A stretch of 63,586 bases of DNA, counting the filler, from Psammoneis japonica (Eukaryota), in NCBI GenBank assembly GCA_008632985.1. It is 5 parts of 5 records of this genome, joined end to end, with 100 filler letters (N's around TTAATTAATTAA, not from the genome) between each part and the next. Parts side by side here need not be neighbours in the genome. Positions count along the whole stretch, not along the records: positions 41,008 to 54,367 come from QPGO01000210.1; 4 more parts are not named here. The stretch is one strand, 5' to 3'. Position numbers and translations under genes: made by a program. Positions 15,856 through 58,150 of this stretch are shown here, piece by piece (within the stretch, counting starts at the first letter, position 1; each line of letters starts with the position of its first letter). Below the pieces are notes generated by a model. It was not told the origin of the DNA. It did not search any database and worked only from the letters and a program-made list of their open reading frames with translations.

Positions 15856-15955
15856 NNNNNNNNNNNNNNNNNNNNNNNNNNNNNNNNNNNNNNNNNNNNT
15901 TAATTAATTAANNNNNNNNNNNNNNNNNNNNNNNNNNNNNNNNNNNNNNNNNNNN
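15856..15955. other. Artificial contig linker N44-TTAATTAATTAA-N44
   Basis: Identical construct occurs four times and places stops in all six frames. Confidence 0.97.
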
Positions 15956-24906: not shown

Positions 24907-25014
24907 CGCTTGAGTTAAAGGATGCACAGCAAAGAAAAGAGAAGGAAAGAACAAGACACAGTGTGATCACAGTGAACGGTCTTGACAAGTTGTCCACGAA
25001 TGCTTTCTAAAAAT

Positions 25015-25206
25015 TGTGGGAAAAGCTGCAATTGACTGCAGCCACAGTGTTCGGGTTTCTGTCACAGAATTTCTTCGAGGTGTCAACAATCCGGGTCACT
25101 CGAATCTCCCGAATCTTGCAGCTGCTGACGCAATTGTGACGCAGAAGTTTGCTTCACAGGTGTCCTCAATTCCGGGTGACCAGGGAGACCCGCGTAGAGT
25201 CCCACA
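25015..25206 (-). repeat. 192-bp LTR with TGTGGGA...TCCCACA termini
   Basis: Perfect 7-bp terminal inverted repeat with TG..CA ends, ~110 bp upstream of the gag start. Confidence 0.7.
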
Positions 25207-25704
25207 CAATTTTTGTTCCACATGTCTTTCACAACACACCGCAAAGACCAACCATGAGCACCGGCCGCACTGTCACCATCACCCGCCATGCGGTGCCGGC
25301 AAATGCCAAGCGATGCGCAAGCGAACCACCTGGGGCCCTAAAGAGGCTGGTCGCAGGCCCGCTGCAAGCACTTGATGTCACAATGGTGAGCTCAGCATGT
25401 CTGATTGGGGGGGAAAGACAAAGAACAATCATCCTTCGACGGATCGAAAAGGTCGTGCAAACATTGATGTCGGTTCGCTGCAGCATGTGCTGGTTTTGTG
25501 CAGATTGGTCGGAGACATTTCTGCACGGACTCTCCTGCGGAAGTGCATGACCTTGCATGCGGTGCATGGGTGTTTTGATGATCCTCGTGTTTGAAGAGTC
25601 TAAAGAAACGAAACCAGCTGTTGTCAGTGCACGCGTGCTGGCCTGTTCGTTCGCACCAGCAGCAGCCGCACTCGCCCCTGCAGGGATGGTGAGGGAGTCC
25701 AGTG

Positions 25705-31900: not shown

Positions 31901-32000
31901 NNNNNNNNNNNNNNNNNNNNNNNNNNNNNNNNNNNNNNNNNNNNTTAATTAATTAANNNNNNNNNNNNNNNNNNNNNNNNNNNNNNNNNNNNNNNNNNNN
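31901..32000. other. Artificial contig linker
   Basis: N44-TTAATTAATTAA-N44. Confidence 0.97.
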
Positions 32001-35419: not shown

Positions 35420-38400
35420 TTAGCAGCAGAGAGTGGCACTGTCTTTCAGAAGGTCGTGACAAAGCACCGTGGGCCTCAGTTGTTTGTTCAACCCCACAGG
35501 GCCGTTGTCAGCAAAGGGTGGAAACTGCGCACATGTTGATGCACTGGCATTGCTGGCCACCACCTCCAGAGTTGTTGGATCACTTGGCAGCACGTGCTGC
35601 TCTGGCACAAGCCATTTTTCTTTGTTTGGCACAAGCTGCACCTGGGTTCTCCAAAAAAGCATTGGGAGTCTTTGGTCGCTGGGTGCTGACTGGACATTTG
35701 TGTGATCTCCATCAACCTTCAAAGCTGCCTTGTTGGCAATGTGGGCTTTCACATTTGCTTCATCAGCACTGCTGTGGGAGCATTTTTCATGTGTGAGCTG
35801 AAAAGTTGAGATTGGTGTTTCCAATGACTGACATTGCAGCTGACCTTGCTGGCCCATCAAAAAAACAATGGACCATTGGAGAGTGCTTGGTGCACATGTG
35901 TGCACATGGTCTTGTCAGCTCAAAGCTGAAGTGGAGAAAGAATGCTGGGTGCCATGCTCTCAGACAATTGGCACCAGCCTGAGCTTGCAAGTCAAAGATC
36001 AAAGAGCATGAGCTGCCATGGTGGGTTAGCTGGGGTCAGGTGTGGCCCTGATTTAAAAAGCTCACATGGCAGACAAGTCTTTAAAAATGAGGTGGTGTTT
36101 GCCATTGGTGCCTCCACAGGAAAAGCAACCCCCAGCAGAGGCAAATTCTTTGTGTGGCTCAGGCGGCTTCTTCTCTTTTGAGTGCTCTTTCAAGGCAGCA
36201 GGGGCTGCACAGCACATGTGTGGCCAGCCATGACAAGAAAAAACTCTGCCAACCAACTGCGCAACACATTTCATCTAGCTGCCAATGCATGTTTTCCAAC
36301 AACCACATCAGAGATTGTGGTGCTCCTCAGAGAAAGCTTTCCTGTCATCTGCAACCCACCACTTCCAAAGCAAGCTTCTCATGCCAGGTTGTGTGCTTCC
36401 AAAGCCAATGATGGCTGACTTTTTGTCTAAATTTGGGGACATGACACTCACACTGCCAAAATCACTGCCAAAAGACAAAAGAACTTTGCAAGCATTTTCA
36501 AAGTTTGCATCAATGTTGCTTTCAGCTGCCAAGAATTCGGCTGTGATTTGCTTTCACATCTGGCCATGCTCTGTGTGCAGTGCAGCACAAACCAAGCAAG
36601 CAAAGCAGCACTGACACAGTGGCCTGCTCACAATGTTTTCAATGGATGCTGTTGGTGTTGGATTGTGCTGTCTTGTGCTTCCACAAATGTGATCATTGGT
36701 CTTCTGCTGCAGACAAGATGGCGGCACTTGTGCTCAACAAGTTTGCCAACCTCAACAAGGGAGGTCTAGATCCAGGCAAATGCCTTCAGTGCAGATTTGT
36801 GAAGGACATTTGCTGGTGTGCACTTAACCTCTGAACCTGACAGAGTGGTTGTGTTGGCACTAATTTCTTCAACAACATTGGCTCAATCTCTGTCATGCCA
36901 TCATTTCAAGCTCTCAGATGTGGTGTTCAGCCTCATGCATGAGAACAATTTTTTGCTGCATGGCACACTTTTGGCAAACAGAGGCGCTCAGCCATGCATG
37001 TGCTTGTGGCTCCTGGGGTCTTCCAAGCTGCTGCTGCTCAGTTGTGTGGGACCGGATGCCAACCTTCTGGGTGCACTGCAACCCCAGATGGTCAGGCTTT
37101 CACTTTGTGAGCTGTGAAGTGCACATGCTTTTTGGCAACTTGTTGGCTGATTTTCCCTGTGCTGTCTCCGCCTGTTTTGATGCTGCTTTTCTTGAGAGAG
37201 CTGGGCTCATCATTGAGAGTTGTGATGAGCTGGACAATGCTCAACAAATGCTTCACTCAGAAGAGCCCAAACACAAGCTTGCAAGCCCAGAGTGATTGAG
37301 ACAGGGCCATTGCAATTTGCTTTGTTGGTGGTCAAAAAGTGAAAATCACACCATGAGCCAGTTTGGTCGCCTCTGTTGCTCAACTTGCCTCCATGCAGCA
37401 CATGTAGTTTGTGCTCCATTCCACCTTTTTGAACCAGCTGATTTCTGTTTGCCAAACCCAGCCAGCACAAGAAAAACTCTCCAGCTGATTCATGATGTTC
37501 TTGATGCTGTTGGCCCAAGATTTGGCAAAGTCTTTTGGACAAAGTGCACACTCACTCTGCCAAAAATTCAGCTCAATGCACTTGACAGGGTGCACTGGGA
37601 GTTCTTTGCTGCATTCTTGGAGTGGCCTCTGCAGCTCTGCAGCTGTTTGCTTGATGTGCCCAACTGCAGCATCTGTGACACACATGCTTTGAGACTCCTG
37701 GCTCTGTCAAGCCCAGCTTCAACAAACAGTGGTGTTCAGCAGAGAATGTGTTCATTTGAGTGACATGTCAAATCAGGCCAGCAGCTTCCAAGCATGCCTC
37801 AACCACCCTCTCTTGTTGGCCTTGTCTTCTCAGCACAACACAACAACCAGCTGTGGTGCCAGAATCTTTTCTCTTGATGCAGCAGGCCATGAACTTGAGT
37901 GGGCTTTTGCAGATCGTCATGGAAGACAGCAATGCCAAAAACAGTGTCACAAATGTTGTGATTTGTTCCACTGAATGGCCAACTCTTGCTGCAAGAGCAA
38001 ACAATTGTCTTTGCACTGTGCTCTGCTCTGCACAAAACTTTTGGTCATTGTGTTTCCCCAGCAAGTGTTCCCAGAAGAAGAGAAGAGTGGCAGAACAGCT
38101 CAGCTTTTTGATCCTGCCCTGCCTCTTGACTGAAAAAAGAAGGTGCATGGGTGCATCATGTCACGCTTGTCATTTGCCAGCTCTGGCACAATGCACACTT
38201 CCCAGTGCACCCATTTCAAACAACAGATCTTTTGAAAAATGCAGTTTGTCCAGTGCTTGAGAGGCTCTCTGGACAACCCCTTGTGCATTTTTTGGCAAAG
38301 CTTTGACATTGCAGCTTGCTGTGAGATGTGTGTGTGCTCCCTTGCTGTGCTGACAGAATCTTGTTGGCACTTGCAGCACCCTTGTGTTTGTTCTTCAAAT

Positions 38401-40907
38401 GCATAACTGGCCAGTTGAGCAAGATCACTCTGAAGCTCTTCCTCTGCAACAGGATGGTGTCTCACTGTGAACTGCTTTCAAACACAGAAGTCAGATCCAT
38501 CAAGTGTGTCACAAGCTCTTTCTTGGATGCATTGCAGCAGTGAGCAAGCAACTTGAGATGGGTGTGCCAAAAGTGAGTGGTGCCCATGCCCACCACTGGC
38601 AGAACACACTCAGCAAGCACAGCTGAGCAGCAGCAACCTCTGGCAGAATGCACTCTACAAGCCCAGCTGAGCAGCAGCAGCAGCAGCTGTTCTCACAAGC
38701 ACAGAAAATGAGAAGCAACAAAAGCATGCTTGCTTGTGTGAAGCTTTTTGTCACCCAAGTGCTCTCAGGCCAAGCAGACTCTGCATCCCCCACCTTTGAA
38801 ACAAGAATGCAGGCACCAGCTTGCTTGGACCCTGGTGAGCAATTTTGACAATCTGGGTGATTTTGAATTTTTTGCTTCCACAACCCAACAGAGTTTTGTC
38901 AGAGAGTTGGGAGCCATTCCTCCACTCCTCTGGGTGGCAGGTGGATGACTCACTCTCACCAGGTTGCACTTGACACTCCAGTGTCTGCCCCAATCTCTGC
39001 TGTCTTTGAACACAGACTTCAATCTCTCTGCCTTTGTGCAGGGAAGGCATTGTTTGATGACCTGATTCTGTGTGCACCCAGAGAGATCCAGGGCACCACA
39101 AGAGTTTTGTCATGGCACTGGTGGCAGTGTGATGGATTTGTGACATCTTCCCAAAGAAACCTTTGGCTGAACCCTTGTGATGTGTGGAGCTGTTCAGGAA
39201 CTTTGACAGACCCAGACATGTTGAAGAAAAGATGTCATTGCTCCTGATGTGGAGGATGCGGCAACTCATTGAGTGCAAAGATGTGCCATCGCTGATCCCA
39301 CCCATTTTGTTGTTCTCACTCTTTGGAGTGAATCATTTGGTTTGCATGATTGTTGAGTGGTGTCAAGAGGCACCTGATGTTGGCAGTTGTTGATTTTCCA
39401 TTAATTCCCAGGCAAACCACAGCCACAGCAGACTGCAAGACAAGTGCAACCAGTTGCTCAGGAGAGGACCTCAAGGAAGGGATTCCCTTTACAAGGCATT
39501 GCCTTGCTGATTCAACATTCACACCAGAGAGTCATGGGTGCCAAGTTTGGTGCTCATCTGCTGGAAGACTGCTGACAACACCAAGATGTCAGAATGCCTG
39601 CACAATGAGTGGCAGAGGAGTGTGCAGATCAAGCTGTTGAGGCCAAGGATGTGGTCCAGCAGAGGAGATGGAAGTCACAGGTTGCAACCACAAGGGTGAC
39701 ATGTCTTGTGCCAAGTGGTTCAAGAAGACCAGCAAGAAACTGGAGATTGAGAGGCAGAGCCATGCATGGATGTGAGAGGCAGAAAAGACAATGGCCCATC
39801 AGTGGACAGCAACAACACATGAGTGTTGACACCAAAAAATCTGACAGATCAACCTGTTCCAGCCAAAGCAGAAGAAGCACTGCATGACCACCAAGAGAAC
39901 AGAGGGGAGCATGAATGACCAAGCCAACACAGACATTGATTCCAAGGAGATTGTCCTTGACAATGGCTCTGGTGCCCTTGGCATGGCAGCAAGCTGGAAA
40001 CTGGTGCACAATGTGTGACCAGCGAGGATCAAGATTGACCCATCAACCAATGCCCACACCCCAGATGAAGCCTGGGCAATGCCAGGATGGAGAGACATGA
40101 AGCTTGGGTCAGATGATGTGATGGCCAGTGACCTCAATTTAAAGGATGTGAAGAGCAAGCACTGCATGACTTGAGATGACGGAATTGCAGATGAGTTCCA
40201 ACTGTTGGGCAAGAAAACTGGGGACAAAAGCTGCAGTGTTCAAAGTTGACAACATTGGGCTGCACATGTTTGCACCAAGTTGAAAATTCTTCAACTGTGC
40301 CAAAGAGCTGCAAGAGCAAGAAGAGCATGTGAGCATGCTGTTGAAGGACAAGAGGAGAGCCACCACCAAAAAGGAGCACAAGGACACATCCAGAGTGATC
40401 ATTCCCACTGCAGAACAAAACACCAAGGGCTGCTCTAAGAGAGAGCAAGCCAAGAAAGCTTTCAGGCTGCAGTGTGAGGGATTTTAAACTGTCATTTTTA
40501 TCAAACCAGGTGAAGAATCTGACCATTGCACCTGAAGACATTGACAGAATGGCGGCCATGTGGGGACCACAGACAGCACACTAAAAGAAAGACCAAGCCT
40601 GCACACCCTGCCCATGAGAGAAATGCTCTGCATTGATGTCATGGAAGCATGTGGAGTCAAGACATTGTGCACAACAGACAAGACAAGCAAGCACCAATCA
40701 AACATGAAGCCAAACACCAAGAACTGCACCAATGCACACAAGGCATTGACGTGGTGATCCTGCAACAGCGCATGACACCAACACATTTAAGATCAACTCA
40801 TCAAGAACAACCTTGAGTTCAAGGATGTGGTGTTGGCGGCCATGCTGATGGCATGGACCCAGAACCAATGGTCCATGAATGCCAAACCACCATGTTCCTG
40901 AAGTGGA
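35420..40907. mobile_element. Highly degenerate TpA/CpG-depleted repeat relic, unclassified
   Basis: About 19 TA and about 20-25 CG in ~5.5 kb by manual count; short tandem CTCTCTGCTSTAGAGCTG at the left edge (~35370-35415). Confidence 0.6.
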
Positions 40908-41007
40908 NNNNNNNNNNNNNNNNNNNNNNNNNNNNNNNNNNNNNNNNNNNNTTAATTAATTAANNNNNNNNNNNNNNNNNNNNNNNNNNNNNNNNNNNNN
41001 NNNNNNN
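40908..41007. other. Artificial contig linker
   Basis: N44-TTAATTAATTAA-N44. Confidence 0.97.
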
Positions 41008-44000
41008 GAGCTTCTTCCTGATCGGAAGGCTTTCCCAACCACCGTTCTCGTTGTTCTTGGGTTGTAAGGTTGCTTGCAAAGAATGTGCTCGCAGCTCTTT
41101 GCAGCATCCTTGTCCATTGTGCATGTCGAACACAGCCAACAATTTCTTCCATTGTTTGACAACCTGGAAGAAGGTTGCAAGAGTGAAGGGAATCACTGTG
41201 TCCCCCCTTCTTCGTTTTTGGAGAGCAAGGCCCGAAGATCAACCAGATTTTGGAAAAATTGAGTCGTCCCAAAACGACTGTCATGCCACTCTCCATCTGG
41301 CATCCAGCAGCAGTCCAACATGATTTGGTCGAACCCATGATTGTCGAAATCAACAAGTTTCTCAAACTGCTGCTTGACTCTCTTGACGAAATCTCTTGCT
41401 TTCACATTGCAATTTAAGTGCAGATCAGGATGTCCGTCTTGGAGAGAAACTGTTGGAACGACGTTTGTGACTGTTTTGTTAGATTCCTCAAATGCCATTG
41501 CNNNNNNNNNNNNNNNNNNNNNNNNNNNNNNNNNNNNNNNNNNNNNNNNNNNNNNNNNNNNNNNNNNNNNNNNNNNNNNNNNNNNNNNNNNNNNNNNNNN
41601 NNNNNNNNNNNNNNNNNNNNNNNNNNNNNNNNNNNNNNNNNNNNNNNNNNNNNNNNNNNNNNNNNNNNNNNNNNNNNNNNNNNNNNNNNNNNNNNNNNNN
41701 NNNNNNNNNNNNNNNNNNNNNNNNNNNNNNNNNNNNNNNNNNNNNNNNNNNNNNNNNNNNNNNNNNNNNNNNNNNNNNNNNNNNNNNNNNNNNNNNNNNN
41801 NNNNNNNNNNNNNNNNNNNNNNNNNNNNNNNNNNNNNNNNNNNNNNNNNNNNNNNNNNNNNNNNNNNNNNNNNNNNNNNNNNNNNNNNNNNNNNNNNNNN
41901 NNNNNNNNNNNNNNNNNNNNNNNNNNNNNNNNNNNNNNNNNNNNNNNNNNNNNNNNNNNNNNNNNNNNNNNNNNNNNNNNNNNNNNNNNNNNNNNNNNNN
42001 NNNNNNNNNNNNNNNNNNNNNNNNNNNNNNNNNNNNNNNNNNNNNNNNNNNNNNNNNNNNNNNNNNNNNNNNNNNNNNNNNNNNNNNNNNNNNNNNNNNN
42101 NNNNNNNNNNNNNNNNNNNNNNNNNNNNNNNNNNNNNNNNNNNNNNNNNNNNNNNNNNNNNNNNNNNNNNNNNNNNNNNNNNNNNNNGGACCTTCATTTC
42201 CTCCATTTGCTTTGCCACTCCCAACTTGGCCACCGGATGGACAAGATTATGAAGGTCAGGGTGAGGATGGATCCCTGTGCCACACAGCATCAATGTCTGC
42301 ATGGAGTTCATGCATCTGAACTCTCCACAATCAGCACCTGTGTGATCCCATGTTTGGACCACGGTTTCAAACATGTCCTCGATCGCCTTGTGGTCAAACG
42401 CCAGCTTGCCAACATTGTCGTTGATCCAGTCAATGACAACAACCAGTCCGCCAACAAGCAAATCCATCAAACTGTTAAGTTTCGTCCCGCACTCTGCCAC
42501 ATGAACCTCCTTGAAATCGAGTCCCGGGCTCTGCATGCGTCGGTTGTTGCGATCCCCCGCAATGCTGCCGAACAGCCTGTGGCTTCTCTGAAGCAATGAA
42601 GGACACAATCGCCAGCCACGAAAGGACGCTTCACAGCATCTGTGTTGCACAACAAGCAGTGAAAACGGGAGAATCCGGTTTGACACCCAGCCACAATGGC
42701 GCAATGAAAGCAATCACACACACCAACCTCGTCGAGGTTGTCAATGATTGCCGAACAACCGCACGAGAAATTAAAGTCCTTCACGATGGCAAACGGAAGA
42801 CATTTCCTTGGCATGACAACAACGGGATGCTCAACTGTGTCGGACGGAAGATTTGGCTTGCCAATTTCCTCTTCCACCCACACAGAGTGAGGGTCAAGGA
42901 AAAAATCTTTGATGTTTCTGTGGGTTGGCTTGCCCGACGGAGGACGACAAGGGCCACGGCATCTCATCATTTCTGCAGCACATGACAGATCAAGTTTTGC
43001 GAAATGACCATGCACACGCGATCGGAACTCGGCACCCATGCCGAACTGACACAGTTTCCAGCATTGCCTTTGGATGCAGTGACAACCTTCAACGACCAAG
43101 AGCGACCAACAGCGTCTCGCAGTGATGAGCAAAGAGCACCAGTCTTGGTGCACCCATCCATGTCACAATCCTCTTTGTCAATGTGCAGCTCGGTTTTCGA
43201 ATTGACGGATTTTTTGCCGGACGACGAGATGCACTTCACTTGAATTTCCACGCCTTCCCTTCTAATGTGCTTGGCTCCAACCATCTTACGGAGCTCAGCC
43301 GCGAAAAGACTGTCACGGCACGGGTCATGGAAGGAATGCATTTCTTTCAAAGCAACAAGATTGATTTTGTCCTCGCAGAGTTGCACGGCGTCCAAGATTG
43401 AGGCTGTCATCACCTGCACATCCTTTGGAAGCTTCTCCCACTTGTCCCTGCCAAAGACAGCACCAGGCTTGTGAGCAGGTCCCACTTCATCTAACTCGCC
43501 ATCTGCGACTTCGTAATTCTGGCCACAACAACCAAAACAGATCCGACAGCGCAACTTGCACTCTGGTCCATCCCTTTTTTTGTTCGGCTCGCCATGTTCC
43601 AACACTGCACGGAGTGTCGACGACACACTGAATCGCAATCCAAAAAAGCATTTCTGACACATCTTGTCCGTGTGTCGCAAACAAGTGACCACGTCAGAAA
43701 AATGAGAGGTTGACTGGGTCGGGCAAGTGATCGCAACCATCGATTCTTGCGTTGGATCATTGGGAGCTGCGCCGTTTTCAAATCCATGCACAAACTTGCG
43801 GAGGTGACTCGCCAAGCAGAAATTGGAGATGCTGTGGAATGACTGGTGCTTGACACAGTTCCCCTTGAAGGAACCGGAAATGGGGGTTTCCTCAAAAGAC
43901 GACAAGGTGAGAATGTTGTGACTTCACCTCACCCGGAATCGCAAACGGAGATGGTTCAGGAAACACTTTCACAAGCTCTTCTTTTGTGAAATTGTCTGGC

Positions 44001-46240
44001 AGAGGAGGAGGTGACTGACAAGTTGCACCAAGGGTCAGCCACTTTGTTCGGGAACATTCAAATTGTTCCTCGAGAGTCGGCACATCTTGAAGAATCAGCG
44101 ATTTGTTCTGAGAAACATCAGAAGGTTCGCCATCTTTGGCGTTTTTGAGACTGGGGCTTGAGGAGCAAAGGGAGGCGGCTGAAGAGGTGGCAAGAAGAAC
44201 AGAAGAATTGGAGACAAGAAGAGGAGGACAAACAATCAATCAAACAATGTGGTGGATTCACACCATTTGGATTTTTTTGTTTCCGAGATTTTTTCATGAC
44301 GGATGGGGTTGCATTGCCGATTTCTTTCTTCTTGTGCTGAGTGGCAAAGTCACGAAGCCTGGCTTTCCACATGGCCTCAAAACGATCCCTTGTGGCCTTG
44401 CTTTTGCCGGAATCATCAGCGGCAGAAACCACACGATCAATTTTCACACATCTTAAAAGAGTCTCATCGACATGTGTTGCGTGCATTTGTTCTCGCTCGA
44501 CATCGAGCATCGCTGGTCGCGCGGGCTTTTCCCAAGAATTTTTGTGTTGGCGGAACAACGACTTTACGAATTCAGGGAAGGACACAGGGCATTCGTCTTT
44601 GGTCGTCTCACAGTGACCAAGAGCCAGGAAATTCTCCAAAAAGTTGATGCAAGTCAATGTCTTGTCACATTCGCCGAACAGGGAGTGCAGCCAACAACCG
44701 CAATCACCATTCCTTTCAGGTGCGCACGGCAAAATCTTGTCACGAAGAATCAAAAAACCAATGTGAAGGTGTTGCGCGCAACGCAAAACCTTCCCTTCAA
44801 AACTTCTCAGCTCAGTGTGCTTGACAAGTGGCTCTCCCTTTGGGTCGCACAATCTGGGATCATGGAGAAGCTTGCACAACATGGTGATCTTTGCCATCAT
44901 GTTGGTTGCAATGTCTGTTGATTTTGCCTTGTTGCCGATGACTTTCATGTCCTCCACTTTGGGAGCACGGCGATGCTCCATCGCATGAGGATGTTTGGTG
45001 CCTTGACTGGAACAACTCCATCTTTTTGCAGAAAGAAAGTGCAGCAAGCTCTTGTGCCCAAGTTCCTTTGCAACAACACGGTTCACAGCCATTGGCTCTG
45101 CAAAAAAATGAGGTCGGCCCTTCGACTTTTGCCACACATGGGCAAGCGCGATCCAATTCGGAGAGGGATCACAAGTGGAATCGCAGTGAAACTGAACCTT
45201 GGATTTCGCCGTCTCGATTGTCGCTTTGACACGGCTCCGCTCGTTGCCATCGATCACTCCAAAACCGTTGGCAAAGAGAGATTCAAACACGGCCTCCTCG
45301 AGGTGGGAATCATTGTTGTCTTGCGACAGAGAGGTGACCGACAGGTCACGCGGCGCCATGGTTGCTGTTCCAACACCAAAAAATCTGGTTTCTGTGGAAA
45401 TGCACCAGAGTGGTGTGTGGGAGAAGTTGCACATGCGCCTGGCACGATTTGGAGTTTCAAACACAAAAACCCACCAGACGCATGTGCAACTTCTCCCAGG
45501 GAAATCCTGCATGAGATTGCACCGGGAAAGGGCAACACAGAGTGCAGAGCTGATGGAAACAAACATTGTGCGGAACCGCATCAGGAGAAAGGGTGCATGC
45601 ACTGGAAAACAACATGGATTTCTGCATGTGCGTTAAGGTGCGTAAAAAACACGTGGGGGTCTTCAAGCGACGCACGCGAACAATCACATAGAAACATTCA
45701 GAAACGGAGACAGCACAGAGAGAAGTCAGAAACATGGATCCAAAACAAAGTGACACACAACAGAAAAAAAAACAACAACAACAAGAGATGAAGGCAACGG
45801 CGATGGGATCGATGAAAAAGAAGGATTCGGATGGAAAGACGCCGGAGACGGTGAAAACAGGCGGCGCCAAGATGAGGAAGGAAGAGAAAAATGGGGCAGG
45901 CAAAATGAAGAAAGAGAAAAAGAAGCCGACAACACGACGTCAAGAGGGGAGCAGCGATGCGATTCAGCGTTTTGAGGGACCTCTTCCTCTCAATGATGTT
46001 CGCCCAAAATCGCAAGAAATGCAGTGTGGCTTTTTTGGAATGGCGACGAGGAAACATCCAACGCGGCAGCGGCACATTTGAAATTCTTGCAAGAGAGCGG
46101 ACAAGACACATGGAATGAAGAGGATGATGCGGACGACTGGGCAAATTGGAGCGCAGTTGTTGATCAAACAATCAGCGCACACTTTGCATGATGAAAATTT
46201 CATTGCATGCAATTGCAGTGTTTGGCTTGTCGTCAAAGAT
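41008..46240 (-). pseudogene. Long degenerate minus-strand coding region of unknown family within repeat DNA
   Basis: Successive protein-like ORFs 44118-45602, 42967-43905 and 42467-43153, almost Tyr-free; TA lost but CG retained. Confidence 0.45.
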
Positions 46241-46249
46241 CACCAGTTG

Positions 46250-49200
46250 TTGTGAAAAAGGCAGAGCACAAAAATTAAAAAACATCGGTGTTCAAACATG
46301 AAGAACAGCAGGAGATTGACAATTGGCCAAATGACAAAAACCGTCATGTGCAGACAAGTGGGTTTTAAAACACAGCAACACATTTTTGTCATGTGTGCAG
46401 ACATTGCGATGTCGTGCACTCTGATGCACTGGTTGAGCCAGCATGCAACTTTTGCACTTGCTTGCTGCAGGCAGCCTGGCTGCTGTCTTCCCCAGAGGAT
46501 CAGCTGGAGAGCAGCTTGCCAGCACAGATGGCAACTGGTTGACACCCCAGCAATGGCGACAACAAGCAAGTCCTCAAGCTTTGGCCTTGGAGAAGAAACT
46601 CTTCCCGAGCAGCACATTTGTGGCTTGTCAGCAGGAGGACAACAGCTTTGAGCAGAAGAGCAAGCAGCAAACTTGTGTCACCACACAGCAAACAAGATTT
46701 CATCATGGAAATGCACAGAATGAGTGCACCACTCTGTGGCCAGAAGAGGGAGGTCTGGAATGTGATGATCACAGGACAAGAAGAAAAATGTGGCTCATGT
46801 TCCAAGCTCATGTTGCAGTGCATGTTCTCATTCCCTGTCACACTTCATGGAACAACCACACTCTGATGCCTCAGTCCATGCTCTGAAAAAGGCCTTTTCA
46901 ACTGCAAAGGAAAAACTGGAATGTGTGCACTGAGTTTGCCAAACAAATGGAATGCCCCATGCTCTTGGAGCACATGGCATCTGTCTGCCTGTTCTCTGGC
47001 ATCTGTCTGTCAGCTCAAGAGAGCAGAGTTGCTCTGCCCCCTGGCACTGAGCCATTTTTTCTTCTGCTGAACACATCTTTTTTTTCTGGCAGCCCTGCCA
47101 CTTGACAATGGCAGGCACATGATGCACACCAAAGTGGCAGCCACACTCACTCAACAAGCACGACTCAGTTGCAAGTTTGACAATGGCGCTGCTTGCGCTG
47201 CTGGCATCAAAAAGTGCAGTTTGGTTTGATGCAGTGCCTCACTCTGCTGCAGCATCATGGCCATGCTTGGAGCTTGTGAAGTGAAAAGGATGTGTCACAA
47301 AATGACAATGAAAAGAAAATGTGAGAGACTCAGAAGTTTTGAGAGAACAACAAATCCCTCAGCAGCCAGTGTCCTCCAACTTGCCACAAAGCACAGGTGG
47401 ATGAGCACCCCCTCCACCTCCTCTTGACACTGACTTTCCTCATTGTTGCTGTTTGTTTGATGTGCTTGAAATTGTGCACAATTTTTGCAGGAGCAACAAG
47501 CGCCAAGTGCAGCAGATGACAAGAGAAAAAAGATGCCAATGCAAAGACTCTGCTGCTCCACCATCAATTTGTGCACATGCCACCAACTCAACAAAAATTC
47601 ATGGAATTTTGCAGTGCTTTTCTTCATGCTTTCAAGCAAAAAGTCTTTGTTTCCTCTCAATGTCAACACATCTGAATGGCGCAAAAGAGGCTCAGCACAT
47701 GCGTGCTGATGACCTGGCTCTGTCTCCAATCTTGTGTGATGGGTTCAGCCAAAGCGCACCCACTGTCTTTGTTGTTGAGCCAAACATCAAATGCACGCAT
47801 GCAGACATGAGATCACAGATTGACTTTCCATGGCAAAAACAAAAACACAAAAGTGGTGCACAAAGAAGAAGACAAGAACCAAGAGAAGCAGAGACAAGGC
47901 ACGTGAGACTTGGTCGTGTGCCTCTTTGCTGTTGCCATCACTTCCGGCCTGTTGCAGCCATGGGTGATGAGCAATCCATCATGGGAGAGGCTAATTTTCT
48001 GGACAGTTTGGCACACTCAACTCCTTCAAATTTGAACATTTCAAAAATTGAAAGGTGAGTGCAGACAAAAAACCAAAAGTTTTGTGTGTGATTTGGGAGA
48101 AAACCAATTGTGAACAAGTTCATTGTGCTGAATTGCAAAAACAGGCCAGTGATGGGAATCAAGCCTGTGCATGTCACCTGGAGCTGGGGCAGCATCAAAG
48201 TGCTGGAAGGGCCAGTTGGTTGCAACAACCAGCAGCTTCATTAAAAATGCAGACAATTTTCTTTCCCTTGGCATGGCTCTGCTGTGCAGCAGCAGCTTCC
48301 ACAATTCCATTGCTGATGCACATGTGGTGGAATGCCAGAAGCATCCAAGTGCAGTCTGGCAAACTCATCCATTGTTCATCATGGAGCACAAACAGAATGG
48401 TGGTTGCATGGAGTGTGCTTTTCATGTTCCTTGAGAATCTCCTCACAATCATGGAGTGTGGATGTGCACTCCATGAAAAGTGGCCTCCACGAAATGTGCA
48501 AAAATGGCCTTGTTTCTTGCAGAATGGCTCAGAGGAATGTGAGAAAAAAGGCTTGTTCTGCACACTTCCATGAAGTCTCATTTGCTGCACACACCTTTGC
48601 ACTTGTTTGTTGTGGCATGGCCAGCATGACCACTTGGGTGCTGAGGCCACCAAGGCCTGCATTGAAGTCTGCCAAGAAAATTTCCAGAGTGGGCAAGCCA
48701 TGAGGCCAGCACTTTCTTGCATCTCTGCTTTTGCAAGATGGCAGCCTGGAGCTCCTGAACAAAGGATGAGCAGCAGCAGCAAATTTGAGGTGCACAAGAA
48801 AGCCTTCATTCTGGACAGACAGTGCACATTCATCCAGCCCCCAGATGACTGGGCAGCACTGGCACTCTGGCTTCTGACAGCTTTCAGCATGATGAGGCAG
48901 CTCTGTTGTCTGGAGAGCAGCTTGAACAAATTTGGCAAATGTGCAGCACCAAACCCACAGAGATGACACTCAGACAGAGACGCACACTCAGCAATTGCAA
49001 AATGCAGAGTGAAGCACCAATTTCTTGAGGCTCAAACATTTCTGGCGCACGCTGCTGCACCCAAGCTTTCTCCCATGGCAAGCTCCACATGTGTGGCTGT
49101 TGTGCATGGCTGTTGTGCAAATGCACAGCAACACACTGCCTCAGATGTGTGTGGTGCCATCCTTTTGGCTTTTGTGGCAGACGCCCTTCATGCCGCAACT

Positions 49201-49900
49201 GCGCATGCTTTCAAATGCCAGGCACGTGCCTTCTTGGCCAAGCAGAGAGCTGCGTGCTTGAAACTTTCCTTCTCTTTGGCATTGAGCCATCTCTTTTTGA
49301 TGTTTGGTTGAGTCCCACCCACTGAAATTTTTGCCCAAGGAGTGTGCTGCATGTGGTGCGGGTGCCGAGTGTCGTGGCGTGCCTTGCTTTGGAGCAACTG
49401 CGCTGGAGCTCTTGCTTGGCTGCCATTGTTGTTGACAGCATGGGCACAGAGAGGCCAGTGGCTGCCATCCCTCCCTTGAAAGATGAGGATGCTTCACTCA
49501 AAGATCTGAGAAGCAAAGGCAGGCACCTTTGACATGGCTGGTTGCCACATCCCAACCAGCAGTTAAAACTTGCTTTTCTTTGACCATGTGCTGCGGCATG
49601 CAGGGCGGTTGCATCACCACAGCGCGCCATGCGCAGCGACACGCATGGGCACAGGTTTTCACGCGCCGCAGTTGGTGTGAACACCACAACACTTTTTTTT
49701 GTGAGCGACAATGACAGGCTTGCGTCGCTTGCGCCGTCGCCGTCAATTCTTCATGCAAGGTTAGACACTCATGAGATCATCTCCATTCATTCACATGATG
49801 CACATGCCTTGGCTCTGTCTCGACAAGTGCCGCTGTTTTGATTTTTTGTTTTGCATGTGCTCCTGTCAGTCACGAGTCAACAACCGAGTCTGATTCACGG
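46250..49900. mobile_element. Degenerate TpA-depleted (mostly also CpG-depleted) repeat relic
   Basis: Composition only; no recognisable domain. Confidence 0.5.
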
Positions 49901-49939
49901 ATGACGCTTCCGGTCATGGATCTCTTCTTCTGGAAGAAA

Positions 49940-50167
49940 TGTCCATTGAGTCTTCTAGCGACAGCAATCGGAGTGACACACACGACCGTCAGGTCATGAT
50001 GTCATCTCCAATCCCTCGTGAGATCTTCTCACAATTCGCATCTTCAGCGCATCTCATTGTCCCAAAACTGCTTCTTGTCATCCTCTGTTGTGTTGTGCAA
50101 CCTCAAGAGAGTCCTGAACTCTCCATCCCACACAGTGCATTGTTGCATCCCAAGTGGTTACGACCCC
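49940..50167 (+). repeat. Candidate Copia 5' LTR (49940-50152) and primer-binding-site-like GGTTACGACCCC (50156-50167)
   Basis: TG...CA segment followed by a motif resembling the GGTTATGRGCCC half-tRNAiMet PBS, ~160 bp before the gag ATG; second LTR not in the window. Confidence 0.35.
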
Positions 50168-50328
50168 AATCCACGCACCGGTGTCAACTCCCAATGGAGT
50201 TGCTGCCACTCGTTCGTCTCGTTACAGACGACATCCCATCCAACGGCGATCTTCTGTGTCGCAATCCAACGGCGATCATCTACATCGCAATCCCCACCTG
50301 CTAATCGATCCTCTACATCGAATCATCC

Positions 50329-53300
50329 ATGACCATGTCCATGGATCCTGATGCTGTCAAGATGTTTGCTGAGGCCTTCGCCAAGATGCAAACCTCGACC
50401 AACCCTCCTACGATCCCCACGCCGCTTCGCGGCGGCATCCACCACTCTCATGGAGTGCATCTGGGTGGTTCGGCTCTGAACAACAAGTGCGAGCAGACCG
50501 ACACCCGCACCTGCCGTTTTGCCTCGCAACGTCGCCATCCGAAAGCTGTCGACTCTATCGAGCGATCTCTCAGAGATCAACTCGCTTCGGCAACCACATC
50601 CAAGTTCAACGGCCAGATTGAGTCATCCAACGGTTCCAGTGCTGAACTGGACAAAGACCACTTCGTCAAGACCATTCAGGACTTAATCGAGTCGCACGGA
50701 CAAGAAACTTTCTACCATCTCAAGAAAGTTGACGGCAAGGTCGTGTGCCTTTTTGATCATCTTCACGCCTTCACTGTCAAAGACCTTGAGAAGGAATGTG
50801 AGACCCGTGTGGCGGCCACAGGTGACGAAGGCTACGATCAGTGTGAAATCGATGACATCGGCTCATCACAACTCATCGTCAAGTCGCGTGTCGCCGAAAC
50901 CTTCCGTGAAAAGATTGAAACCAAGTTTGATCACTTGAAGAACTGCAAGGATCTTCCGGGGTCTGTCTCATTTATGATGGCTCTGGATGCCTGCAACGCC
51001 AGTGCTCTGGTTGACGTCAAGGCCGCCAAGGAAAAGTTGAACGACTTAACTCTGGATGCCTGCCCTGGCGAGGACTGCACCGAGCTTGCAACCGAAGCTC
51101 TGCGCCTGCTCAAGATCATGCAGACGGACCATGTGTCACCAGTTGAAACTGGGTCTGCTGTTTTATCTGAGGTGTCAAAGACATCCTCCGAGTTTTTCAA
51201 TTGTCAAGTTTTTGCCAAGCTCGACTCTGTCAAGCGCTTGGAGCGCAAATGTCGCTTGCGTGACCCGGCAGAAGTCCCCAAGGATGCCGACCATGCGGAT
51301 CTTGGACCTGTTGGCCTCATTGGCTGGATCACCAAGACCCACGGCGAACTCATCAGCGATGAAGATTGGCCTGCCTTAGCAGCCAAGCTCCCGGAATCCA
51401 ACCTCGCCAAGGACAACTCGGAAAAGCATTGCTGCGGCTGTGGCAAGGTTGGGTGCACCAAACGCACGTGTCCCACCTGCAAGGAGCAATGCAAGAAGGA
51501 CAAAAAGGGCATGGCGGACAAGTCCAAGGATGACCCTCCGGATGTCCGGAAGACCAACCCTTCCAAGAAACCACCCAAGCCGGCCTGGCGTTTCGTTCAC
51601 AAAGGTGCCACTGTCACCGACGAGAAAGGCACGACCTGGCACTGGTGCGACAAGTGTGTGAACAAGGAAACGGGCAAGAAGGGCATGTGTCAAGGCCACT
51701 CCTCCGCTCAACACACCGGGAAACCGTCTGTCAAAACCGAAACCACCGCTGCGGCAAATTTGTCTGCTGTGTCGGACCCCTCTTTGGGCATTCCTTTTGG
51801 TCCTCCCGAGCAGACGACGTCTCCGCCTACAGACGAACCCTCTGACCCTAACGAGCTGGTTTATTGCGGCATGTGGTGTGCACCTGTGGACGACTCTTTG
51901 AGTTCGACTCCAGTGACCACGACCGTCACGTTCACTCCTGCTCCATCGGCCGAGAGGGAGACTGCCGTGGCCAAACCCGCTCCCATCTTGGTTGAAACGG
52001 TTGACCCCGAAGACGCTGACGATTGCTCCAAGTGCTCTGACGCTCACTCCTCTTTTGACTCCCTGCCGTCAGCTGTCGAGCTATTTCCGGCCTGTGCCAT
52101 GCATGAGATTCAAAATCCGGACGTGTTTTATGACACGATTGCAACTCACGTGGAAGGTCTGTCCGACGACGTGTCAGACGATCTCGTTTCCGGGGCAAGC
52201 ATCCTGCCTTTCGAAGACAGCCACGCGCACTTACCTCCAAGCACCCAGTGTCGCGGTTTCGAATTTTACGATCCCGAACCCCAAGATGTTGATTGTGGCG
52301 TCAAGGAGGCAACGCCGAGCTCTCGTCTTGAGCTTTTCTGGAACTTCTTGAAGCTCCGAGTTTTCTGGCTGTTTGCCATGTTCTGGGAAACGGCACTGCA
52401 CATTTGCTGTGCGCCGATTCCTGTCTTACCTCGTCGTGTGCGCCGCAAGGCATTCATCCCAACCATTCACGGTTTCCCCTCTACCTGGATGGTGCTGACT
52501 GGAGCCATCATGGTCTGGGTGTCTGTTTTCAACAGTCAGCTTCCCACGCATCCATTCTCCAATGTCCCCTCTCGCTTCTCCAAAGCTGGCTCTCAGGTCC
52601 ACTCGATCATTGAAGAACTGGACGACAAGACAGTGTTGGATCCGGGCAGTTTGGTGGAATGCAACAAGATCAAGGCGCGACAAGTGCTCACCGAATTTGT
52701 GGAGCACGATCCGGACCATTGTCTGAGCAAGAAATTCACGCAGCTCTGGGAGAATGACGCATGCTCTTCCCCAGGCCGCTGCATCCCTCCAGCTCTAGAA
52801 GACCCCGAGTCCCACTTCGACACCTGTGATTCAGAGGAAGCCCTCGGCCCGCTCCCGACCGAGCCGAGCCACTGCTTTGATGCGGTTGAGGAGCTCTCTC
52901 CGGACTATTTTCGTTTCGACGAGCTGTCCACCAAGTTTGGTTTCGTGGACACCACTCCATGGCAAGACCCTGTGAAGCTTCTCCAGGCAGCTACTGACGG
53001 AACCGAAGCCCATCCTGCTCATACCTCTGTGCAGGTGTTGACAGGCCAACGTTCTTTAGCACAACTCGCCGCCGACCCGCAAGCTTTGCTGAGCCCAGCA
53101 CATGAGCGCCACACCATCACATGCGACACTGGCGCATCCTTGGCCATTGCTTACGATGAAAACGACTTTGTCGGACCTCTGACGATCCCTGATGGCCCAT
53201 TGAAGCTTGGGGGTCTAGCAAATGGCTTAACCATCGCCAGCATCGGACCCGTCTCCTGGGTTTTCCACAACGAGGACGGCTCTGAGCTCATCGTCAAGAC

Positions 53301-54367
53301 GATGGCGCACCATGTGCCTCAGGCCGGACAACGTCTTCTATCCCCACAACGCCTCTACAGTGAGGAACATGGCGTGACAGGAAAATGTGAGGGAGACGAG
53401 GACTCATTTCGAGTGCATGTTGATGGCGCCGGTTCGCTCAAGGTCGCGCACGCGTCAAATCACTTGCCGGTTGCGTCTGTGACCAACGGGGTGGCACCCG
53501 CTCCTCAAGTCAATCTGTCTGTGTTGCACGAGGACAACCAGAACCTCACCACCGGTCAGAAGCTCCTTCAAGAATGGCACTTCAGGTTTGGTCACCTGAA
53601 TGTGCCACGTGTCCAAGGCCTGCTTCGGGCCGAACCTTTTCTCCGACCCAAATTCAAGCATGCTTCGCGTTGCGACATTCCGCGGTGCGAGGCATGCGAA
53701 CATGCCAAAGGACATCGCCGAACCCTCAAGTCCGCCAAACATGCGGCTACTCCAGAGCGTGAGGGTGCTCTTCGAGCCGAGCATCTACGTCCAGGCCAAG
53801 CCGTCAGCGTGGATCACTTCGAATCCCGTCTCCTCGGCCGAACCTACGACTCCTGCGGGAAGGCCTCGTCCCAGCAATACAAAGGAGGCTGCATTTTTGT
53901 GGATCATGCCTCCGGTTACCCACATGTTGAACACCAACTTGGTTTCTCTGCTGTGGAAACGGTGCGAGCGAAGCAAGCGTTTGAAAAGCACGCGATGGAC
54001 CACGGCGTCATCATCCAAGAATTTCTTGCCGATTCTGGCGCTTTCAAGGCCAATGCTTTTGTGCAACACATGCGACAGCACGAACAACGTCTACGTTTTT
54101 GCGGAACCAACGCCCACCATCAGAACGGCGTCGCAGAACGCGGCATTCGCTCCGTCTCCAACATGGCGAGAGCGATGCTTCTCCACGCATCCATCCGTCG
54201 GAAGGGGGGCATGGACAGCTCTTTGTGGCCTGTGGCCGTGTCTCATGCCACGCACATTTACAACGTGACTCCCAACGCTCAAGGCCACTGCCCCGCGGAC
54301 ATTTTTACCGGCACTGCTGCACCCCGACATCGTCTTCGCGATGTCCACGTCTGGGGCTGTCCGGTTT
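50329..54367 (+). mobile_element. Ty1/Copia (CoDi-like) gag-pol polyprotein: Gag, Zn knuckles, protease, GAG-pre-integrase, integrase; truncated by contig end
   Basis: CCGCGKVGCTKRTC, WHWCDKC, protease DTGAS, LLSPQ, WHFRFGH..CEAC, integrase VSVDH / LADSG / HHQNGVAERGIR, VWGCPV; protease-integrase order indicates Copia. Confidence 0.95.
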
Positions 54368-54467
54368 NNNNNNNNNNNNNNNNNNNNNNNNNNNNNNNNN
54401 NNNNNNNNNNNTTAATTAATTAANNNNNNNNNNNNNNNNNNNNNNNNNNNNNNNNNNNNNNNNNNNN
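54368..54467. other. Artificial contig linker
   Basis: N44-TTAATTAATTAA-N44. Confidence 0.97.
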
Positions 54468-55609: not shown

Positions 55610-58150
55610 TGATGGTCATGCACCACTGCACAGCTTGCATGAGGAAGGCATCAAGAACACACCAACATTGGTAAATTCAACAAAGCTGTGTTGCTGGACC
55701 TGGCGGTTTGTGCAGGTGCCGCTCCCTCTTGCCTGGCAGTGCACATGGCCTCTGTGCTTGAGTCCATGCTTGGTTGAGAAAACCAAAGACTGGGGTTTCT
55801 GGACAGAAGCTGAGAAAAGAAAGACAGCAATCTAAGGAAAGAAAGAAAAAGGCTTCCAAGGACACCAAGAAGTTGGAGGCAGCAAAGGCTCCTGCAGCCA
55901 ATTGAATGGAAGTGACCAAGGTTGCAACAGATGAACCGACCAACAAAGAACAAAAAGAAAAGTTCTGGCAGAAGCCACAAGTTGGCAACAACAACTGCAG
56001 CCAAGAGGCACTGCCCTTGGCCAAGGGTCTTGCCATTGAATGCTGTCACACCAAAATTGGCACCATTGTTGAAGTGAAATCTGGTGGTTGTGGTGTCCTT
56101 GCCTTGACAATGTGAGAAGTTGCCAAATGCCACCTGTGGAGCAAGCTTGCGCTGCCAACATTTGAAGCAAAAAATGACTGCACAGCTGCCAAAACATTTG
56201 TTGTGCTGGGTGGCTGTGCTGCAAAAGCGTTGCCCAAAGCCACACTTGACATCAGTTCTTGTTTTGTTTCACACCTCTTCCAGGGAGTGCTCACAATGGG
56301 CAGATGGAAATGCACTGAAAAGAGCAGATTGGATTTTCAATGCACTTGAGCAAGCTTGGAACGCTGCTGTGGTTCAACAAATTTTAAAATTTGTGAGTTC
56401 TGAATGGCTGATGGTGGGTGCAAGGACAGGCAGTGACCAACCTTGTCTTGTTTGGTGATTCTAGATGAGAGCAAGAGGACCATGGCTTGCTGCTCCCCAA
56501 TCTGCTGGCAGCACTGTGGGACAGAGTTGCAGTGGCACCTGGCCAAACCAAGAACAGCAAACTCATTTTTCTCATTTGACAGCGCTGCATCAGAAGCTTG
56601 GTCAGAAGTTGCTGCCAGCAGCTTGTGTGTTCTGACTGCTCCTGGCTTGCTGGGCATGCTCCAGCAGAGCCAGGTGCAAACCCTGCAGACACTTCTCCTG
56701 GATTTGAGAAATGCACATGCACAGCTCATCATTTGTGCTTTGGGTGCAGCATTTTCTGTTGCAAAGAAGCAGCAGCATGTTGTCCAATTGTTTTTTTAAC
56801 AAAGACACAGGGCAGGCACAACACTCATTCTTGGTGCAGCTTTTTCTGCATGGCAATGGTGTGTTTTATTGTTCTGAAGTGACTTCAACAACAGCAGCAG
56901 CAGAGGTGCAATTTTTGACATTCTTTTTCAACTCTGTCATGATGCCAAGAGAGTGACATGCACAGATGCCAATCCAAGAAGTGCAGCAAATCCAGTTGTG
57001 CCACAATCTCAACCACTTTGTGTCAGCAATGTGATGTGAAGAAATCAATTGTCAACATTTCAAAACAGATTTTTCTGTCACAACCCCTTGTCCTGGCATG
57101 AATGACAAAGTTGTTTCCAGGGGCCCCGGAGTTTCTTCAGTGTGCAACCTTGCAGAATCAACAAGCTGCCATTGTTGTCATGGCATTTTCTTCATTCTCA
57201 CAGAGCATGCAACAATTGACATTCAAACTTCAAACTCATTGCTCTGAATCATCATTGGTTGAAAAACAACCCTTCTCCTCATCACTCCTTGCTGCAGTTT
57301 TGCATGTTGTGTGCTGTGCACTCATGTCAAAGAACACATCAAATCAAACACATCATTTTTTCATTGCAGCAGCAACCAGCTGTTTGCAGTGCACTTTCAC
57401 AAACATCCAAATTTTGAAGATGGCAGCAACAATGCAGTGCCTCGATGCACACATGTGGGGGTCTTCTTTGTGCATCAGAGGGTGCTCACATTTGGGCAAC
57501 AATGTTGCGTTTTTGCACTTGTGAGCATGCTGTGAGTTGGGGGCTGTGAAAAATGCACGCATGTTTGTCCACTGTGTGCGTGTGCTTTGACGTGCTGTGC
57601 TGCTGCTGGAGTGCCTTTCTGTGCCCACTGTGGCTCACAAGAAAAGACAGAACATGTGCCAGTTCTCTGTTGGAGGGAGTTTTTGCTTCATTTGGGACAA
57701 GAACACAAGAAACTCTGAGAAGAGAGATTGGGATGGTCGTCTGCTGCATGACCTGGTTGCATGGCATGTGCTGATCTGGCCAAATGCAGAGCAGCAGCCA
57801 CACAAGGGATGACAAATGATGACAAGAAAGCTTGTTCTGCATCACCGAGAGAGAGAGAGCTGTCATTTGTGCAACAATGTGGTGTGCTGGTTGAAAAGTG
57901 CACCACATGACAGAGCTGGGGCTTCCCATTGACACACATGCACTGGTGCCAAAAAGTGGAGTTGTTCATGTGCCCTTGAATGGCTTCAAGGTTGATCCAG
58001 AAGTGCACATTTTGTCAGATGATTTGTGATTCTTTGGAGTGGAGATCAAGATGTCCAGAGCCACACGGAGAATGTTGCTCGAGAACACTTGTTGACTGCA
58101 AGATGCTCTCCCAGAACTTTACTTCTGCCACCTGTTTGAACTCCAGAGAA
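55610..58150. mobile_element. Highly degenerate TpA/CpG-depleted repeat relic between pyruvate kinase and the sulfatase
   Basis: Sharp compositional island; GC-rich CCGCC repeats at the right edge (58160-58235). Confidence 0.6.

Follow-up and report, generated by a model that had tools for sequence, protein, structure and literature searches.

The repeat-induced point mutation (RIP) of fungi changes C to T, mostly CpA to TpA, and so creates TpA dinucleotides and stop codons and makes the affected DNA AT-rich; the ADAR, ADAT and APOBEC3 deaminases have RNA or minus-strand cDNA as their substrate and leave a one-strand signature, the ADARs being a metazoan family. Here we describe a stretch of 63,586 nucleotides of the pennate diatom Psammoneis japonica (assembly GCA_008632985.1), referred to as the window, in which the open frame of a Ty1/copia-type retrotransposon copy (50329..54367, plus strand) and long blocks of other DNA are depleted of the TpA dinucleotide. 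The element itself is an ordinary copia, and its interest lies in the mutation process written on it: with a probability of roughly 0.78, this copy has been exposed, like much of the surrounding repeat DNA, to a targeted TpA-to-TpG/CpA transition process acting on DNA.

The closest described case is that of the chlorarachniophyte Bigelowiella natans, a rhizarian. As given in the main text of the preprint, 230 of the 231 single-nucleotide mutations found in two integrated viral regions of its mutation-accumulation lines were A>G or T>C, all on TpA, at a rate of ~6e-7 per site per generation; TpA-poor coding sequences were enriched in reverse transcriptase (RT) and DDE domains, an ADAT2-like candidate was proposed, and the Discussion refers to the 5′ U/T preference of A-to-I editing (Mettrop et al., bioRxiv 10.64898/2026.01.13.699255). 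Judged against that main text, the Psammoneis locus is alike in the change itself (A>G or T>C at TpA, giving TpG or CpA), in the clustering of TpA-poor, CpA- and TpG-rich DNA, and in that foreign or selfish DNA is hit with host genes spared. It differs in the host, a stramenopile instead of a rhizarian; in the target, a multi-copy long terminal repeat (LTR) retrotransposon plus repeats without a family assignment instead of a single-copy giant-virus insert; in the degree, near saturation (observed-to-expected ratio, obs/exp, 0-0.1) against a Rho of 0.45 in the nucleocytoplasmic large DNA virus (NCLDV) region; and in the kind of evidence, de novo events there and a signature read from sequence comparison alone here. 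The main text of that preprint, its supplements aside, mentions neither diatoms, retrotransposons, tyrosine nor flanking bases, and the hierarchy of flanking bases observed here (RTAY > YTAY/RTAR > YTAR; R, purine; Y, pyrimidine) was not found in it either, its supplementary tables aside. A full-text literature search returned no report of TpA-targeted hypermutation besides this 2026 preprint; the present locus would thus add a second, distant lineage to a phenomenon in print from one preprint, here at saturation and in an LTR retrotransposon family.

Fungal RIP is similar in being a dinucleotide-specific transition hypermutation of repeated or selfish DNA that leaves sharply bounded, skewed blocks, but the direction here is the opposite one, with TpA destroyed, TG/CA and GC rising and stops impossible; the flanking TA-null DNA (nearly devoid of TpA) is, moreover, single-copy-like by depth, and the locus does not classify as RIP. 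With ADAR, ADAT and APOBEC3 it shares deaminase-type transitions and the logic of retroelement restriction by hypermutation, and it differs from ADAR and APOBEC3 in that hits occur on both strands and extend to flanks that are not retroelement DNA. The element resembles the CoDi elements, the Ty1/copia-like elements of diatoms, as far as the text on them describes these, in its diatom host, in the order of gag, protease (PR) and integrase (IN) with RT following, and in that its nearest named relatives are diatom proteins; the RT, by which the groups CoDi1-7 are defined there, lies outside this gap-cut copy (Maumus et al. 2009, PMC2806351). That paper mentions neither TpA, dinucleotides nor tyrosine, and none of the relevant terms occurs in a 2025 preprint on diatom transposable elements (10.1101/2025.10.24.684338).

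Tyrosine and TpA depletion in the copia frame

The frame begins at an ATG at 50329 and contains no stop in 1346 codons. The sequence-only reading had described it as open for ~1346 codons with no stops or frameshifts, and this stands far beyond chance, the other five frames carrying stops at 2.8% of codons, mostly TGA, which gives a probability of ~1e-17 for 1346 open codons; its end, however, is not a natural one. The frame meets the linker of an assembly gap at 54368, so that 1346 codons are a lower bound and the RT/RNase H portion is not in this copy. A search with residues 880-1346 yielded 429 proteins at E<=0.001 among 8000 scored candidates (best, 1.7e-183); the best 120 of these, 41-69% identical, served as relatives, and the named ones among them include a Fragilaria crotonensis protein (62% identity).

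Compared with these relatives, the copy is stripped of tyrosine. Only 12 of its 1346 residues are Tyr (0.89%), together with 4.98% His and 3.42% Cys, while the relatives have 1.71-4.85% Tyr (median 3.09%); none of the best 120 is as low, and the 12 Tyr fall below even the lowest relative's rate (binomial p=0.02). That active relatives might prove equally Tyr-poor had been named beforehand as the outcome that would undo the idea of tyrosine stripping, and it was not observed. Recounting returned exactly the proposed figure of 12 Tyr, 11 of them preceded by a pyrimidine; the single purine-preceded Tyr codon (1/12) compares with 46% in 15 GC-matched relatives (p=0.008), and the bias is a real signal that marks RTAY as the hot site. 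At the dinucleotide level, TpA obs/exp was 0.18 and CpG obs/exp 0.91, with 36 TA observed against 199 expected from base composition and ~112 at the relatives' median ratio of 0.565. This median derives from the long open reading frames (ORFs) of 48 metagenome relatives (range 0.32-0.94), retained from 80 loci by dropping those with a longest ORF <700 aa.

To locate the lost residues, the 60 best relatives were aligned and those columns kept in which Tyr occurs in 50% or more of 30-60 relatives (n=23). At these columns this copy reads His 9, Cys 5, Tyr 5, Phe 3 and Ser 1, so that CAY or TGY stands in 14/23; the replaced columns include ones with Tyr in 60/60, 58/60 and 33/33 relatives. Since His (CAY) and Cys (TGY) are both single-transition products of TAY, the missing tyrosines have been converted via TpA loss. 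All seven replacements proposed from the sequence match the relatives: SYPGE, HKYKL, AYYVP, CEYAK, DSYGK and TYATHIYN appear in the 11-relative consensus and the column counts, and the proposed CTA-to-CCA change is borne out at codon 1198, which is CCA (Pro) here and CTG (Leu) in sister contigs, fitting an ancestral CTA. Codon-junction T|A, at which T>C is always synonymous, is depleted as well (1/64 and 9/109, versus 19-20% in relatives).

Sister copies, i.e. contigs of the public run X1 placed at >=80% likeness on 48800-54367, allowed the changes to be read one by one. The contigs of this run contain 54% of the element's sampled words, and 920 were placed, 265 of them at >=99%, 313 at 95-99%, 247 at 90-95% and 95 below 90% likeness. 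No contig of two other runs, X2 and X3, could be placed there, and no RNA run is among those listed for the sequence, which bears on neither expression nor absence. Their summed depth is 57-93 over 48800-49729, 2797-7401 over 49730-50287 and then ~2500 (overall 765-7401 from 49730), and the element is thus a multi-copy family with its 5′ edge near 49730. Among 184 variant places, 154 are transitions; the spectrum was taken from the best-supported 40, of which the 37 inside the element amount to 28 events, the resulting fractions being lower bounds. Ancestral TpA accounts for 17/28 of the event sites, CpG for 10/28 and any other kind for 1/28. Nine events are adjacent TG/CA pairs, six with CA here and TG in the other copies and three the reverse, and such a pair is the outcome of hits at a single ancestral TA, on one strand in some copies and on the other strand in others; another eight have TG/CA here and TA in sisters, the singles splitting 4 to 4 between A>G and T>C. 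The remainder comprises eight sites with TG/CA here and CG in sisters, two with CG here and TG in sisters, and one transversion. The signature is TpA-specific, and the hits are independent between copies and on either strand, as exemplified by the two pairs that fall in Tyr codons, codon 140 (Cys here, His in sisters) and codon 322 (His here, Cys in sisters, with Tyr in 33/33 relatives). The 24 in-ORF events divide into 16 nonsynonymous and 8 synonymous ones, as expected for unselected change, and indels against sister contigs in the ORF are few (three among the 12 indel entries listed of 18, on two low-depth contigs).

A related observation concerns a more distant copia family, of which three sister copies, L042, L045 and L046, are 95-99% identical and derive from separate marine metagenome assemblies. 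They are Tyr-poor (1.5-1.8%), with RTAY 4-5 versus YTAY 18-26, and L045 and L046 differ at 24 sites, 9 of which are of the TA/TG/CA type, including two TG/CA pairs. The TpA process seems active in other organisms, too.

The absence of stops had been taken as a sign that the copy is young. Enumeration of all codons and contexts revealed, however, that TpA transitions (T>C, A>G) never make a stop; they destroy TAA and TAG, so an open frame is uninformative on TpA hits, and for these the argument from missing stops to youth is invalid. Among CpG transitions only CGA>TGA gives a stop, and the CGA codons of the ORF are 11/11 intact. As stops are frequent in the other frames, a frameshift would soon close the frame, and its openness shows that neither a frameshift nor a non-TpA nonsense mutation has occurred. 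Youth itself is unproven: CpG decay has begun, and at 215 conserved columns (residue kept in >=90% of relatives) this copy mismatches at 22 (10.2%), where the relatives have a median of 2.4% and reach 11.4% at most. The description of CpG as abundant held in terms of the ratio, but eight listed sites are TG/CA here and CG in sisters, and at codon 971 a conserved Gly, kept by the sisters, has become Ser through CpG.

The order of decay is better supported than the age. Over 49730-54367, at least 17 ancestral TpA have been lost versus 43 remaining (at least 28%), and at least 8 CpG versus ~314 remaining (at least 2.5%), so that per site TpA is lost at a rate no less than about ten times that of CpG. 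Among 500-bp bins of the window, 0/51 TA-normal ones are CpG-poor, whereas CpG is >=0.6 in 19/52 and <0.35 in 29/52 TA-null ones; according to these counts, TpA loss either comes before CpG decay or can do without it. Together with the few indels, this agrees with the earlier proposal that TpA loss is fast and comes before both CpG and indel decay. Such a ranking of TpA, then CpG, then indels could be used as a decay clock for dating repeats in such genomes, and it carries a warning for annotation, namely that heavily mutated elements stay open and CpG-rich, neither of which signals youth or function there.

Flanking DNA, sequence context and rival explanations

The depletion is not confined to the element. 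Over the window, 52 of 122 informative 500-bp bins have a TpA obs/exp <0.15, many of them 0.00-0.05, with TG and CA at 1.5-2.0 and sharp borders; they hold 0-3 TA per 500 bp versus ~30 expected. These TA-null blocks (TpA obs/exp 0.00-0.1), at 501-3500, 8001-11000, 18672-20500, 23001-25500, 35501-41000, 42188-49500 and 55801-58000, are sharply set off from host genes and occur in two states, one with CpG kept (e.g. 8001-10500 and 42501-46000) and one with CpG lost (e.g. 36001-40500 and 46501-49000). The flanking TA-null DNA that hosts the element insertion (42188..49729) has a TpA obs/exp of 0.05, with CpG kept at 42.5-46 kb and lost at 46.5-49 kb, and in its last 930 bases, which are single-copy-like by depth and without copia similarity, TpA obs/exp is 0.02. 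The process has therefore acted in non-copia DNA as well.

A neighbouring ORF at 44121-45632 on the minus strand, within TA-null but CpG-rich DNA, contains no Tyr in 504 aa. It has 37 homologues at E<=0.001, belonging to no known family, the best of them (P0361) at 1.1e-136 and 58% identity, and the 21 aligned Tyr of P0361 correspond in this ORF to His 9, Cys 8, Phe 3 and Ile 1, with His or Cys at 17/21. The ORF is an independent replicate of the tyrosine stripping, at saturation.

The surviving TA are not a random sample of contexts. In host regions (948 TA), 312 (33%) are RTAY, 157 (17%) YTAR and 479 (51%) YTAY or RTAR; in TA-null blocks (72 TA) the corresponding numbers are 0, 45 and 27, and the 43 TA of the element consist of 2 RTAY, 11 YTAR, 30 YTAY and 0 RTAR. 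Within the copia ORF, 2/36 TA are purine-preceded, versus 43% in the 15 GC-matched relatives (p=7e-7). Loss thus proceeds in the order RTAY, then YTAY/RTAR, then YTAR, and because RTAY is lost first, the surviving Tyr codons are nearly all pyrimidine-preceded.

These data are best explained by a process in which TpA becomes TpG or CpA by an A:T to G:C transition on either strand. Tyr codons (TAY), which contain an in-frame TpA, turn into Cys (TGY) or His (CAY) codons, and ATA and GTA codons and junction T|A are affected likewise; as such a process makes no stops and spares CpG, a heavily hit copy can keep the appearance of an intact open frame rich in CpG. A simple rule could account for the context order, namely that the changed A is the one with a 3′ pyrimidine (5′-TAY to TGY), by which both strands of RTAY, but neither strand of YTAR, would carry a target. 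In its favour, CpG-rich TA-null blocks compared with host regions lose 8.9 YTAY/RTAR per kb and gain 7.3 YTGY/RCAR and 2.5 YCAY/RTGR; the pyrimidine-preceded Tyr of ORF 44121-45632 have become Cys and His in a ratio of 7:2; the abundant sister variant is TG in 4/4 YTAY-type pairs; and the hits confined to this copy, where sisters keep TA, lie mostly in slow contexts (YTAR 4, YTAY 3, RTAY 1). Hits on both strands and the TA-free non-copia flank point to action on chromosomal DNA and not only during reverse transcription. The chemistry would, by analogy with that proposed for B. natans, be an enzymatic deamination of adenine to hypoxanthine, which is read as G; for any such enzyme the flanking-base rule is a constraint.

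Several observations weigh against this account or limit it. The direction of change was inferred from relatives and sister copies, with neither an enzyme nor a de novo event observed here, and the sole run with the sequence may be the assembly's source sample, so that the base calls are not independently proven. Among the 22 mismatches at conserved columns, only ~6-9 are TpA transitions and 3 are CpG transitions, while ~10 are neither, which indicates that ordinary divergence or decay contributes too; for some of the Tyr, the loss may be common to the entire family and not recent. The sequence-only reading had named high non-TpA divergence as a result that would speak against it; differences from sisters are neither TpA nor CpG in 1/28 events, and mismatches at the conserved columns in the ~10/22 just mentioned. 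The TAY rule also meets misfits: survivors in the copia ORF show no effect of the +1 base (pyrimidine in 28/36 versus 75.5%, p=0.85), RTAR is gone there while YTAY stays (0/26, p=0.005), pyrimidine-preceded Tyr columns of the copia ORF have become His 5 and Cys 2, and the purine-preceded Tyr of ORF 44121-45632 have become His and Cys in an unexplained ratio of 7:1. Such misfits could come from a gene-orientation strand bias, from past purifying selection on a still-active family or from small numbers; a strand bias is hinted at by the survivors, but not by the Tyr products or the sister-copy differences. Product trinucleotides, compared with the 15 GC-matched relatives, show an excess of TGY only (41.9 versus 29.2 +/- 3.5 per kb) and none of RCA, on a baseline too noisy to give the direction.

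The copies could instead have been born mutated, if an adenine deaminase that edits RNA or single-strand cDNA at U-A/T-A acted during retrotransposition, following the logic of APOBEC3 and ADAR. The strand asymmetry of the copia-ORF survivors (sense RTA 2/36, sense YTAY retained, RTAR 0/26) would fit this, as would the abundant sister variants (depth 600-3400 versus ~57 in the flank) that share mutated states, which is expected of mutation before amplification; shared states are, however, also possible by convergence, the context-favoured TG being found in the abundant variant of all four YTAY-type pairs. We regard such an origin as unlikely, given that sense-strand A>G and T>C are both seen (Tyr to Cys 5, to His 9; singles 4:4; pairs 6:3), that the single-copy-like, non-copia flank is even more TA-free than the element, that the 16:8 ratio of nonsynonymous to synonymous copy differences is that of unselected post-insertion change, and that in B. 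natans the signature appears as de novo mutations in a chromosomal region that is silent and single-copy. A little less likely still is that no dedicated enzyme is involved and TpA is lost as a by-product of chromatin, through a repair or replication bias, TpA base modification or biased gene conversion. TA-null blocks do fall in non-genic DNA and have often lost CpG as well (the 29/52 bins below 0.35), suggesting methylated heterochromatin, and no deaminase was identified in this analysis, the Pfam matches of window ORFs including no deaminase gene. Against a chromatin by-product stand the near-complete TA removal, the sharp block borders, the tight context (RTAY 0/72 in TA-null blocks) and the 19/52 TA-null bins with CpG >=0.6, for which CpG-decaying chromatin is not needed; biased gene conversion, in addition, is not dinucleotide-specific.

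Two further explanations are less probable than these. Tyr poverty might be a trait that this copia family has fixed through composition or selection, and no mutational damage at all, and it is true that TpA is under-represented in all relatives (0.32-0.94), that D-T-G and D, D, E are preserved at the catalytic sites and that the frame is open beyond chance; the idea is already largely refuted and very improbable, since none of the 120 relatives is equally Tyr-poor and invariant Tyr have been replaced, sisters carry different products of the same TA (the nine pairs), synonymous-capable junction T|A is depleted alongside, and non-coding and antisense contexts are equally TA-free. Least probable of all is an assembly or sequencing artefact. 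The window does chain five short contigs by artificial linkers, and the element is collapsed-repeat territory, but the Logan contigs, built independently from the public run, hold the 54% of sampled words given above with 265/920 at >=99% likeness, and L042, L045 and L046, from other assemblies, differ among themselves in the same way. We know of no platform error that turns TA into TG or CA in a context-dependent manner.

Returning to the targeted TpA process, one can extend it to a diatom enzymatic defence that deaminates adenine in 5′-TA-3′ (TAY preferred, making RTAY a target in each strand) of transposons and other silenced DNA, renders them TA-free faster than 5-methylcytosine decays and, the same signature being present in a rhizarian alga, could be ancient in the SAR (stramenopile, alveolate and rhizarian) supergroup. 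We hold this wider proposal tentatively, at somewhat less than even odds. An A:T>G:C genome defence at TpA would mirror both fungal RIP and APOBEC restriction. It would also remove two of the three stop codons and create none, thereby turning dead repeats into long 'ghost' open frames; gene prediction would be led astray by these, and de novo gene birth could draw on them. In the window, 70/118 stop-to-stop ORFs >=120 aa lie in DNA with a TpA obs/exp <0.15 (manual count), as TA-null blocks keep only TGA as a stop and so carry dense, long, spurious ORFs on both strands.

Element structure, host genes and window layout

From one copy of this multi-copy Ty1/copia retrotransposon the window contains the 5′ two thirds, with leader, gag, protease and integrase; the open gag-protease-integrase frame is assigned by relatives and motifs and cut by the assembly gap. 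Upstream of the frame, the 5′ end of the repeated element with a probable 5′ LTR and leader occupies 49730..50328 (plus strand; boundaries approximate; TpA obs/exp 0.19, CpG 0.94). The depth step at its edge and a stretch of double height over 49916-50287 in the contigs of run X1, which fits an LTR, suggest a 5′ LTR. Searches by blastn or tblastn detected no second LTR or sister copy within the window, and tblastn with 9 full-length relatives detected no other copia pieces there.

All motifs of the frame lie on the plus strand. The gag zinc knuckle at 51430..51471 reads C-x2-C-x4-C-x4-C, in place of the C-x2-C-x4-H-x4-C (KCFRCxGxHLxKDC) of the relatives' consensus; this H to C change at codon 376 takes two changes, possibly by way of a Tyr intermediate. 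The aspartic protease motif CDTGAS lies at 53122..53139, with D-T-G-A-S itself at 53125-53139 and formed of columns invariant in the 11-relative alignment. It is followed by the zinc-binding HH..CC region of the integrase (WHFRFGHLN ... RCEACEHAK, 53575..53709), in which the conserved Tyr of CEYAK is now His, and by the integrase catalytic core (53803..54144), where D (VSVDHFES), D (LADSGAFKA) and E (NGVAERG) are intact; these three columns, invariant in the same alignment, we take to be the integrase DDE triad. Pfam gave only a weak gag_pre-integrase match on the ORF (aa 1080-1127; 21.1 bits, under the 28.4 cut-off) and no integrase core (rve) at E<=0.01, and the integrase assignment therefore rests on relatives and motifs. 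Many of the relatives carry a copia-type RT, PF07727 (RVT_2), downstream of the integrase.

In the TA-null blocks, the ORFs tested contained no Pfam families; Pfam on 6 homologues of ORF 44121-45632 likewise gave no informative family, and a protein search with the ORF at 42970-43923 (minus strand) gave no usable match.

The five short contigs of the window are joined by four identical linkers, at 15856-15955, 31901-32000, 40908-41007 and 54368-54467, each consisting of 44 N, TTAATTAATTAA (a six-frame stop spacer) and another 44 N, so that neighbourhood across the junctions is artificial. The last of these (54368..54467) cuts the copia element, and the next contig opens inside a pyruvate kinase gene, the best named matches of which, from Amphora coffeaeformis (76%) and Seminavis robusta (74%), support a pennate diatom as the host.

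The host genes of the window are long, intron-free ORFs with ordinary TpA. Those with Pfam matches have 500-bp bins at a TpA obs/exp of 0.35-0.8, the pyruvate kinase bins being at 0.35-0.59, and 11 of the 12 Pfam-matched ORFs reach a TpA obs/exp >=0.43, among them host genes for DNA polymerase A / 5′-3′ exonuclease, COG6, valyl-tRNA synthetase, sulfatases and an EF-hand protein; the top matches of the sulfatase ORF are 49-62% identical. The sole exception among the 12 is a PIF1-like helicase ORF of 456 aa (33208-34575, plus strand), with an intermediate TpA (obs/exp 0.27) and lowered CpG, which may be the gene of a Helitron-type or other mobile element that has been partly hit.

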